Source: a virus. Taken from it: 64,000 nucleotides of DNA. How positions within the stretch are numbered: the stretch's first letter is position 1; each line of letters starts with the position of its first letter. Below, one piece after another: positions 36,799 to 38,593 of the stretch. The DNA lies in UHGV virus genome UHGV-1366990; one strand, written 5' to 3'. The position numbers and the translations under genes are program-made. The notes under the pieces were generated by a model. That model had not been told where the DNA came from, ran no database searches, and saw nothing but the letters and a program-made list of their open reading frames with translations.

Positions 36799-36998
36799 TT
36801 TGGTTCCTTGAATATTTTGTAACCAGCAGCGCCGATAGACATCACCGCGCCAATACAGTACATCACAGTCACGTTCAACTTCTCTGAGGTTGTTAAGTCC
36901 AGAGGGGTGAAATGATAGGCTAGGGCAGTACACATTGAAACGGCTGCCATAACCAGACCAATGAACAACAGATAATTAGACAACCGTTTCATGATCAC
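36795..36998 (-). CDS. small membrane protein
   Basis: 67 aa with two hydrophobic helices. Confidence 0.45.
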   Translation of the reverse strand: MIMKRLSNYLLFIGLVMAAVSMCTALAYHFTPLDLTTSEKLNVTVMYCIGAVMSIGAAGYKIFKEPK

Positions 36999-38593
36999 CC
37001 CTTCTTCATCAGGTCAAGGAGAGAGCGCGACGCTGCCTTCGTTGCTTCTGGCTGGGCGCTCGCCTTGGTTTTAGTTTTGGATGCCTTCTGCGGCTTCTCA
37101 GGCACTCTGTGCGCCAAAGGGTTGCTACCCTTAATCTTGCGCAACATTGGTGTGGTGTCGCAATATTTTTGAAACTCTTCTTTGGACAACCCTCTCAATC
37201 CAACAAAATCTATAATAAAACTACCAATAAAGTGGAGAGGGGCATCGAAGAATTTCAGTATATTCCAACCAACTGCCTTTACACCATTTTCATTCGCTGC
37301 CTTTGCAATGAACAACTCATTCTGAGAGTCTGGTTCAAGTTCGTATCCGATGGAAGCGTACTCACCCATGATCTTGACGTGATCCTTGGTGTATTGTTCA
37401 TTTCTTCCCCAGCCAGTGTCCTTCGCCGCCTTACCAGAACGACCGATGATACGTTTGTCGTAATCTTCCCGCGCTTGGTAAATAAAGGAGATGAATGCCA
37501 TGTTGTTGAACCCCAAGTCCTGGTGTACGAACTCGGGACGCCATCGATGACTCTGCATCATAGGTTCCCCCTCCAAGATGATAGTTGCATCTTTGAACTT
37601 TATTTTGAGATACTTCAACAACGAATTGGCCATCTCAGAAGACTTGAGAGTGGAGTGTATGAAATCCATGGAAGTCCATGATGCTAGACCTGATTTGTTG
37701 GACACTGTATACTTGCCGATGAACACCAGATTGATTTCCTTGAACCAAAACCCAACCTGGATCATCTTCTTGTCGAATTCGTATTCTATGAGTTCTGGCT
37801 CATATTTGGTTCTCAACCACTCAAGGAATTGAACGACACGAGTCCCCTTTCCCGTTCCACTTGTCCCGCGAATAACGACAATACCCGGCGTCACGCTAGA
37901 ATTTATCATAGTCATAAAACGTTTGTCCTCTTTGGGAATCCAACCATCTTTAAACATGGCGATCATATTACGAAAGACGCTCTCATCGCCCTTTAGATTA
38001 CGATACTCTGTGTCCAGTAGTTTAGAATACCACAATCCGATAGATTTGTAACCACATCCTCGTTTTGGCATACTGGTAGGATTCACAGTACCGCCGTTGT
38101 TCACCCATCTATCATAGATCCTACGGGCGTCCTTCCAAACCCACCAATAACCATTTGAAACCATGAATGGGTAGGGAGAATTACCCCTGTTCTCCTTTAT
38201 TGATTTTATTACACGTTCCCGGTATTCTGGATCATCCCAAGGATTTATACCAGATTTGTATTTCTTGCCAGTCCTAGCCAACGCCGCCTTAAATTGGTTT
38301 GGTATGATAGAATTGTCTCCTCCCAATTTCAGGTTCAGACATAACGGGTCCGACAGCAACTCATCCGTAACAATAATAGACTCCAGGTCGGATGCTTCCA
38401 ACCTGGTTTCAAACTTTTCTATTATCGTCTTTGAAAATTCAGAAGCGGGATGGGATTCCAACAACCTTTTGATGATCACACCAGAACCCATATAGGGGTC
38501 TTGTTCAGGAGCACATGAACAAGACCGAATCCCGACGTAGAATCTACCTGTGGGAACATGAGTTATCCTATAGGTGTAATGGTAACGAATCAC
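36995..38593 (-). CDS. GIY-YIG nuclease-like N-terminal domain fused to a P-loop (Walker A) kinase-like domain
   Basis: Residues 1-90: YTYRITHVPTGRFYVGIRS, ESIIVTDELL, LNLKLGG (GIY-YIG-like). Residues about 115-135: NUMOD-like PEYRERVIKSIKE. Residues 243-251: Walker A GTSGTGKGT, then ILEGEP. One uninterrupted ORF. Confidence 0.55.
   Translation of the reverse strand: MIRYHYTYRITHVPTGRFYVGIRSCSCAPEQDPYMGSGVIIKRLLESHPASEFSKTIIEKFETRLEASDLESIIVTDELLSDPLCLNLKLGGDNSIIPNQFKAALARTGKKYKSGINPWDDPEYRERVIKSIKENRGNSPYPFMVSNGYWWVWKDARRIYDRWVNNGGTVNPTSMPKRGCGYKSIGLWYSKLLDTEYRNLKGDESVFRNMIAMFKDGWIPKEDKRFMTMINSSVTPGIVVIRGTSGTGKGTRVVQFLEWLRTKYEPELIEYEFDKKMIQVGFWFKEINLVFIGKYTVSNKSGLASWTSMDFIHSTLKSSEMANSLLKYLKIKFKDATIILEGEPMMQSHRWRPEFVHQDLGFNNMAFISFIYQAREDYDKRIIGRSGKAAKDTGWGRNEQYTKDHVKIMGEYASIGYELEPDSQNELFIAKAANENGVKAVGWNILKFFDAPLHFIGSFIIDFVGLRGLSKEEFQKYCDTTPMLRKIKGSNPLAHRVPEKPQKASKTKTKASAQPEATKAASRSLLDLMKKG

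Follow-up and report, generated by a model that had tools for sequence, protein, structure and literature searches.

In phage ViI, on the way to the hypermodified thymidine 5-NeOmdU, the enzyme gp243 (‘Kinase2’) moves one phosphate from ATP onto 5-hydroxymethyl-deoxyuridine (5-hmdU) in DNA, an activity demonstrated in vitro (PMC8989533), and gp247 acts en route to the same base as a serine:DNA transferase (PMC8989533, PMC5889632). Kinases of this kind (5-HMUDKs) tolerate added domains, and occur fused to a pyridoxal phosphate-dependent enzyme, in a triple fusion with a decarboxylase and aGPT-Pplase2, and as the kinase-PPlase gp186 of SP10 (PMC8989533, PMC5889632). The partners in these fusions are enzymes of the same pathway, the only kind of partner described by Lee et al. 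2021 (PMC8989533), and none is a homing endonuclease. Here we describe a gene in which the partner is, by homology, just that. It lies on the minus strand of a 64,000-nucleotide stretch of the virus genome UHGV-1366990 (the window), and in it a Seg-type GIY-YIG homing endonuclease and a predicted 5-hmdU DNA kinase of the HMUD2 family are encoded in a single open reading frame (ORF). We propose, at a probability of roughly 0.6, that this gene is a mobile homing-endonuclease/kinase cassette which replaces the ordinary kinase as a block between phage genera.

The closest precedents on the nuclease side are the endonucleases SegA to SegG of phage T4, which belong to the same nuclease family and share with the N-terminal half its build of core, linker and C-terminal DNA-binding part, as well as a size of about 230 amino acids (PMC2988022). 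Like the fused gene, the Seg endonucleases that spread by intronless homing lie between conserved genes, are variably present and accompany replaced, non-homologous flanks (Edgell et al. 2010, PMC2988022); unlike it, they are free-standing, whereas the fused module has no stop codon of its own and runs on into the neighbouring gene. Free-standing endonuclease genes are known to split host genes (Aeh1 nrdA, T4 gene 39/60, phage 25 gene 43), and no in-frame fusion of an endonuclease to a host gene is listed in the Edgell et al. 2010 review (PMC2988022), nor is a kinase fusion in a 2006 survey of GIY-YIG architectures (PMC1564403). Homing endonuclease gene (HEG) islands offer a second parallel, with an endonuclease at the edge of an exchanged block that carries a life-cycle cargo gene, but there nucleases flank the block in pairs, whereas here a single nuclease forms one polypeptide with its cargo (Barth, Dunham & Seed 2023, PMC10055350). 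The gene itself has been seen from either end: the LIMEstone1 paper of 2012 lists it as a free-standing SegB-like endonuclease, F-LimXI (PMC3296691), in the PP35 paper of 2019 it figures as one of a pair of kinases (PMC6336734), PHROG 15209, named ‘endonuclease’, already brings the fusions together, and the product names given in sequence records are homing endonuclease, phosphotransferase, P-loop nucleotide kinase 2, guanylate kinase or hypothetical. A literature search found no description of the fusion or of its allelic behaviour, Iyer et al. 2013, which defined the kinase family, lying outside its coverage. Known before were the separate annotation of each half and the presence of the gene in public records; the stable fusion, the deep allelic dimorphism and the inter-genus transfer were undescribed.

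The window is a ViI-like genome of the Ackermannviridae and not T4-like in the strict sense; its nearest relatives are the phages fGh-Ecl02, PC3 and RPN242, with flanks 96-99% identical in DNA. A first-pass annotation, made from the letters alone, had described one uninterrupted ORF of 532 codons in which a GIY-YIG nuclease-like module is fused in frame to a P-loop kinase-like domain. The ORF is exactly as described (Table 1), with a GTG start codon in overlap (GTGA) with the TGA stop of the DUF7254 gene upstream, and the proposed composition is borne out by matches to PHROG 314, by tblastn and HMMER searches, by the HMUD2 profile and by fold comparisons; PHROG 15209 (a 497-position profile) matches the protein across residues 35-532.

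By its homologies and its model, the N-terminal part, residues 1-233, is a complete GIY-YIG homing endonuclease of the Seg type, a type that is normally free-standing. When 67 Seg-like endonucleases, some fused and some free-standing, are aligned, ten residues prove invariant (Y8, Y19, G21, Y34, G36, G38, E71, N87, G91 and G92), and the motifs quoted in the first-pass annotation do occupy conserved positions, YTYRIT...FYVG carrying Y8, Y19 and G21, LESIIV carrying E71, and LNLKLGG carrying N87, G91 and G92. All ten are kept even in fused relatives at 38-40% identity. We take E71 and N87 to be the counterparts of the catalytic Glu and Asn of I-TevI (E75 and N90 in that enzyme), going by motif order and not by a residue-level superposition. 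For the conserved basic residue R27 of I-TevI there are two candidate counterparts, position 23, which is R in 46 of the 67 sequences and H in 19, and position 42, which is K or R in 44. The Pfam SegE_GIY-YIG profile matches weakly (E 0.02-0.25, below its curated cut-off); PHROG 314 ‘homing endonuclease’ matches residues 3-227 at E 1.2e-23, and tblastn retrieves genes of the T4 SegB, SegC and SegD types at 30-40% identity, with E values down to 5e-16.

Searches with the N-terminal module also set it apart. Exhaustive HMMER comparison with 1.84 billion cluster representatives gave 6486 matches, only two of which, both of them fusions, matched the whole module at E ≤ 1e-30, and the part beyond the nuclease core was seen in fusions only. 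A similarity search with the N-terminal 233 residues alone returned no match, a result ascribed to a word-index limit, as fusions 98% identical exist. In a separate structural model of residues 1-233 the nuclease core is predicted with high confidence (pLDDT 87-98), and its three best PDB matches are all the I-TevI catalytic domain, with TM-scores of 0.58-0.59 over 93 columns and non-significant E values of 0.6-1.1; among the predicted viral structures of BFVD there are 87 matches at E ≤ 0.001 (best E 1.6e-11), essentially all Seg-like or GIY-YIG homing endonucleases of 130-390 amino acids, many of which align with the whole module. Residues 98-233 are matched by the C-terminal parts of PHROG homing-endonuclease families, and the middle-region motifs NGYWWVWKD..RIYD.W, MPKRG.G.K.IG.WY and GDESVFRNM..MFK.GW.P are kept down to 38% identity. 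Of the NUMOD-like helix that the first-pass annotation had placed at residues 115-135, a helix predicted with low confidence at 122-135 stands, in a region which those PHROG families cover, and some of the module’s BFVD matches carry a NUMOD3 annotation, but the NUMOD assignment itself found no backing, no such profile being among the Pfam matches even at E up to 10. Between carriers, the ratio of nonsynonymous to synonymous substitution (dN/dS, Nei-Gojobori) is 0.09-0.2 in the nuclease core and 0.2-0.7 in the linker and helical region, where most comparisons give 0.2-0.3. The module would be predicted to cleave DNA at a target of its own.

The remainder of the protein, residues 236-531, matches Pfam PF18747 HMUD2 over profile positions 2-298 of 298 (E 3.8e-156; 519 bits against a cut-off of 25), and every column invariant among 46 HMUD2 members is kept (G.SG.GKGTR, SNKS.L.SWTSMD..H, EGEP, RSGK). 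The Walker A box and the ILEGEP segment noticed in the first reading (E341, G342, E343 and P344 in the latter) both fall on columns that are invariant or nearly so in the kinase family. The P-loop has the form GxSGxGKGT, a family variant differing from the canonical GxxxxGK[ST], which is why a regular expression for the canonical Walker A has zero matches in the window’s long ORFs. An AlphaFold2 model is confident at residues 237-500, where its PDB matches are P-loop kinases (gluconate, adenylate and Fap7-type); the full protein, when compared by sequence with PDB chains, had no match at E ≤ 1, and Foldseek with the full-length model gave P-loop kinases only, the N-terminal domain being masked. 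The dN/dS of the kinase between carriers is about 0.04.

This kinase stands where the characterised one does. Exactly one HMUD2 gene is present per genome (350 phage records, 350 places), and a second copy sought in the window was not found; a gp67-type paralogous kinase is also present elsewhere in Ackermannviridae genomes, including the fusion carrier PP35, whose describers list ORF44 and ORF183 as kinases (PMC6336734). The fused gene holds the position of ViI YP_004327565 (orf00243, gp243), with YP_004327568 (gp247) three genes downstream in ViI, and it resembles gp243 (Lee et al. 2018, 2021; PMC5889632, PMC8989533) in its place relative to the DUF7254, NT5C-like, polB and gp247-type transferase genes, in its match to the full HMUD2 profile, in its invariant residues and in a similar C-terminal tail. 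The profile match and the locus together make the kinase half the positional and family counterpart of that enzyme; it presumably supplies the phage’s Kinase2 function, the gp243 step of hypermodification, and the candidate role as a 5-hmdU DNA kinase suggested by the first-pass annotation is supported. The fused kinase differs from gp243 in being only 47% identical to it overall (41-44% in the core) and in belonging to a separate clade (50/50 bootstraps), and gp243 is without the 235-residue N-terminal endonuclease of the fusion, whose kinase activity is predicted.

The fusion is authentic and old. Frame analysis found the reading frame open from the upstream stop codon in all seven carriers, with no frameshift or stop between the halves, and the Klebsiella and Yersinia phage records hold full-length coding sequences of 529 and 532 amino acids at the same locus; together these exclude a stop lost through sequencing error. 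Full-length relatives in a large protein database are 98, 80, 64, 64, 39 and 38% identical, and for a further relative, at 78%, the gene was called from an internal Met. The read-through of a lost stop codon that the first-pass annotation had considered is therefore untenable as a recent accident or artefact, the fusion being kept down to 38% identity. The two most distant relatives come from metagenomic T4-like contigs outside the Ackermannviridae, keep the nuclease invariants and the middle-region motifs, and are placed directly upstream of the amino acid:DNA transferase (ADDT) gene, which adjoins the fusion in both contigs (L010 and L011), and near an HMUDK_hel gene. The latter (PF18723) is found two genes past the transferase, at 11462-12670 in L010 and 11584-12771 in L011. 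Both halves are under purifying selection by dN/dS. In a neighbour-joining tree of the kinase domain, 50/50 bootstraps recover the fused kinases of Ackermannviridae type as a clade; the main support for a single origin of the fusion comes from the N-terminal module, which is unique and shared by all members, and not from this tree. An ancient stop loss is the likely origin of the fusion. Many public records begin the gene at Met35, for example L005 3001-4497 (PC3) and L008/L009 3001-4494 (PP35, JA15), and this start leaves a ‘gap’ of about 100 nucleotides and cuts off the GIY motif.

Beyond what the first reading of the sequence had suggested, the locus carries three alleles, the fused kinase is xenologous, and the whole unit is laterally mobile. 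Allele (a), in Marshall and ViI, is a kinase alone of about 300 amino acids, so that kinases without the N-terminal module do occur in related phages. Allele (b), in RPN242, XF4 and Ag3, adds a 228-amino-acid SegD-like GIY-YIG ORF whose start lies at the stop codon of the DUF7254 gene and which has an 8-nucleotide overlap with the start of the kinase; 40 records have it, among them those of Vibrio phages (D506, 207E48.1 and others have the SegD-like ORF linked to the kinase) at 49-61% identity. Allele (c) is the fusion, of 529-532 amino acids, in about 30 of the 350 records, its hosts being Agtrevirus-like, Kuttervirus, Limestonevirus and Taipeivirus phages (at least four genera) and a Yersinia phage. 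The SegD-like ORF shares with the fused module an identical insertion point, the nuclease superfamily and a persistent kinase linkage, which, seen in 40 records and down to 49% identity, means that a long association of endonuclease and kinase is not unique to the fusion; it differs in being a separate, overlapping ORF paired with a standard kinase. The two nucleases are 26-27% identical, and fused and standard kinases 47-50% overall and 41-44% in the core; on these figures allele (c) is not a frameshifted form of (b). Among the standard kinases that were sampled from enterobacterial Ackermannviridae, identity to that of Marshall is roughly 72-100%, and against this background the fused kinase is, by its divergence, a distant xenologue. 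The starting point common to the two unrelated GIY-YIG genes is the DUF7254 stop (6585 in L002, 6609 in L003). The roughly 45 nucleotides before this stop are nearly invariant even where flanks are about 76% identical, and are a candidate shared homing hotspot, homology arm, target region or translational-coupling signal.

The limits of the exchanged block are sharp. When the window is compared with RPN242, an allele (b) phage, DNA identity is 96-98% up to 37120 and from 38589 on, and no DNA similarity is detectable between 37121 and 38588, so that the boundaries fall at 37120/37121 and 38588/38589. Over its last 126 nucleotides the gene has 100% identity to RPN242’s standard kinase, which places one crossover in the conserved 3′ tail of the kinase; the other boundary is the start codon, beside the conserved stretch of DUF7254. 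Alleles differ among the window’s nearest relatives (b in RPN242; c in fGh-Ecl02 and PC3) and within the single species Limestonevirus limestone, where XF4 has (b) and JA15 and PP35 have (c). Kuttervirus UTK0004 is 98-100% identical to Marshall on both sides of the cassette, and it is 98-100% identical to Dickeya phage PP35 over about 1.7 kb, comprising the fusion and the next small membrane gene, with flanks at 64-88%; judged by these identities, its cassette is a clear inter-genus transfer. In CAU_YEP3 a nuclease core of 72-77% DNA identity is joined to a remainder at 92-100%, and the core thus recombines independently.

These observations suggest how the cassette might work and move. In an infected cell, the kinase half would phosphorylate, at the expense of ATP, the hydroxymethyl group of 5-hmdU in phage DNA that has just been replicated, and the adjoining amino acid:DNA transferase and later enzymes would complete the hypermodified thymidine, presumably 5-NeOmdU. 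In a mixed infection, the endonuclease half would most likely cut related genomes that bear the standard allele, and repair would copy in the endonuclease together with its own kinase, in the manner of intronless homing with obligatory co-conversion (cf. PMC2988022, PMC10055350), by crossovers on either side, one in the upstream gene’s conserved end and the other in the conserved 3′ tail of the kinase or past it. The resident kinase would be replaced as a block because its DNA and that of the fused kinase are too divergent for the two genes to recombine. The endonuclease is in frame with a strongly selected kinase, so that mutations in it that shift the frame or introduce a stop would be counter-selected, and this would help the endonuclease to persist. 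That the nuclease drives the transfers, and that the fusion brings such a benefit, we infer.

Other accounts of the locus have to be set beside this one. The least probable by far is that a frameshift in sequencing or assembly, or a recent stop loss, joined two genes in one genome; separate endonuclease and kinase ORFs do exist at the locus in other phages and several annotators begin the gene at Met35, but the genes of the split versions are not the same ones (26% and about 50% identity), the same open frame recurs in independently sequenced genomes of at least four genera and in metagenomes, and purifying selection acts on both halves. An artefact or pseudogene was rejected on these grounds, together with the relatives down to 38% identity. 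A fusion in the ORF only, with the kinase mostly translated from an internal start and little full-length protein made, is unlikely, though less so. Upstream of the P-loop by 10-16 codons, near the standard kinase start, a Shine-Dalgarno-like motif and two ATGs (M227 and M229) form the arrangement AAAGAGGA-N10-ATG-ACT-ATG, kept in 7/7 carriers, and the in-frame junction could then be a neutral relic of an overlapping stop and start such as the 8-nucleotide overlap of the alternative allele (b), with its two ORFs, in RPN242. The conservation of this putative start proves nothing, however, as the same bases encode the conserved residues K-E-D-K-R-F-M-T-M; no stop re-separates the halves, whether in the roughly 30 genomes or among relatives at 38-80% identity; and a scan for promoters and terminators, in which the best promoter-like site on the minus strand lies just after polB, found no strong promoter or terminator inside the fused gene but weak matches only (9 of 12), which leaves a separate kinase transcript unsupported.

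About as improbable is domestication, in which the endonuclease-derived N-terminus would serve the kinase as a DNA-binding or targeting domain, for instance by holding it on DNA or by altering the choice of 5-hmdU positions that receive a phosphate, and the cassette would spread by usefulness and not by homing; the first-pass annotation had raised a domesticated endonuclease or targeting module, and it survives as a minority possibility. It would fit with the stability of the fusion down to 38% identity, always beside the transferase gene, with the confinement of the complete module to fusions, with purifying selection on the linker and DNA-binding region in most comparisons (dN/dS 0.2-0.3), and with the known fusions of other 5-HMUDKs to pathway enzymes (PMC8989533). 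A pure targeting role would need no catalytic residues, yet no fused member departs from Y8, Y19, E71 or N87, and dN/dS in the nuclease core is 0.09-0.2; about 320 of the 350 genomes (about 90%) manage without the module, as does the tested gp243; and patchy presence within a species together with inter-genus transfer are classic signatures of homing endonucleases.

The mobile-cassette reading has difficulties of its own. The literature yields no cleavage activity, target site or homing for the fused protein or its close relatives. Free-standing endonucleases normally decay and are lost, whereas the fusion is still present at 38% identity and in two phage groups that differ greatly, and the complete N-terminal module is found in kinase fusions only, so that its stability could mean that it does something of use to the kinase or the phage. 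Ordinary recombination of co-infecting phages, with selection, could move the cassette without a nuclease. The divergence of the fusion in KpS110 (Taipeivirus) is about that of the backbone and resembles vertical descent, and all fused kinases form one clade in the best neighbour-joining tree, but in only 19/50 bootstraps. Lastly, the genomes are hypermodified, which calls into question how the nuclease reaches its target.

To this last difficulty a more speculative answer, which we think doubtful and a shade less probable than domestication, is that the fusion lets the nuclease ride the kinase to the nascent, still-unmodified DNA of co-infecting relatives and so evade the modification. The fusion would then be adaptive for the endonuclease because of the nature of the kinase. 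The kinase would act just behind the replication fork, before hypermodification, and with its C-terminal peptide, similar to the clamp-binding tail of the polymerase, would deliver the nuclease in the one period when the DNA is readily cleavable. The kinase tail consists of a disordered Lys/Pro-rich linker followed by SLLDLMKKG and resembles the C-terminus of polB (40085-40130), VNLLAMMQKKKG; other Kinase2 endings are SLLGLMRKA, NVLAIMLRK, SLSGFFGN and SVFDLF. In T4 and RB69, a C-terminal peptide of this kind attaches the polymerase to the sliding clamp, and by analogy the Kinase2-type 5-hmdU DNA kinases may be clamp-tethered. The word ‘clamp’ is absent from Lee et al. 2021 (PMC8989533). If delivery to nascent DNA were true, Kinase2-type 5-hmdU DNA kinases would be tethered to the replisome.

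The fused gene is part of a co-directional block consisting of polB, a small lipoprotein-like gene, the NT5C-like gene, the DUF7254 gene, the fused gene, two small genes and the amino acid:DNA transferase gene (Table 1). Both small genes vary sharply between genera (33-100% identity). For the one nearer the transferase, relatives annotate about 125 amino acids and PHROG 4163 matches residues 46-167 alone; its true start is probably internal. The neighbourhood is generally rich in mobile nucleases: polB, intact in the window, is interrupted by endonuclease-containing insertions (I-LimII/III) in Limestonevirus phages and RPN242, at 9280-10122 in L003, 7268-7587 in L008/L009 and 9667-9867 in L002.

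Table 1. The fused gene, its parts and its neighbours, by position in the window
Feature	Position	Strand	Basis or remark
Whole fused gene, 532 codons + stop	36995..38593	minus	one uninterrupted ORF
GIY-YIG nuclease core, residues 1-93, beta-beta-alpha-beta-alpha-alpha	38315..38593	minus	predicted from invariants, model and homology
Linker (residues 94-148, low-confidence) and helical region (150-232), presumed DNA-binding	37889..38314	minus	PHROG matches and alignments
Possible internal start for a kinase-only product: AAAGAGGA (37926-37933), 10 nucleotides, ATG M227 (37913-37915), ACT, ATG M229 (37907-37909)	37907..37933	minus	hypothesis
HMUD2-type 5-hmdU DNA kinase core, residues 236-490	37124..37888	minus	Pfam PF18747; xenologous allele
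P-loop GTSGTGKGT, residues 243-251	37841..37867	minus	family-specific Walker A variant
Last 41 codons + stop, Lys/Pro-rich low-complexity linker ending SLLDLMKKG	36995..37120	minus	126 nucleotides, 100% DNA-identical to RPN242 standard allele
3′ end of DUF7254 gene, 5′ cassette boundary, Shine-Dalgarno-like TGAGGA	38594..38640	minus	nearly invariant in all three allele types
DUF7254 gene	38590-38895	minus	directly upstream of fused gene
NT5C-like gene	38905-39684	minus	upstream of DUF7254
polB	40085-43084	minus	intact 999-codon ORF
67-amino-acid membrane protein gene	36795-36998	minus	neighbour of small gene 36421-36933
Small gene	36421-36933	minus	mechanical ORF of 170 amino acids from GTG
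Amino acid:DNA transferase, ViI gp247 counterpart	35202..36437	minus	Pfam PF18724 ADDT, E 7.1e-60; ViI synteny; two small genes between it and the fused gene

For annotation, the case is one of a gene with inconsistent names that is frequently truncated at Met35. The fused protein also presents itself as an experimental object, in which a sequence-tolerant nuclease module, with inferred DNA binding, is combined with a DNA-base kinase. It provides a natural case of a homing endonuclease of the free-standing type held in frame with its cargo over long evolution, and could serve to test whether a selfish nuclease is shielded from decay by being fused to a selected gene. Moreover, Ackermannviridae are under development for biocontrol, where gene flow between genera is relevant. 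For the family itself, a core gene of thymidine hypermodification exists as two deeply diverged alleles, swapped across genera together with a nuclease, and such swapping bears on how hypermodification pathways spread and diversify.

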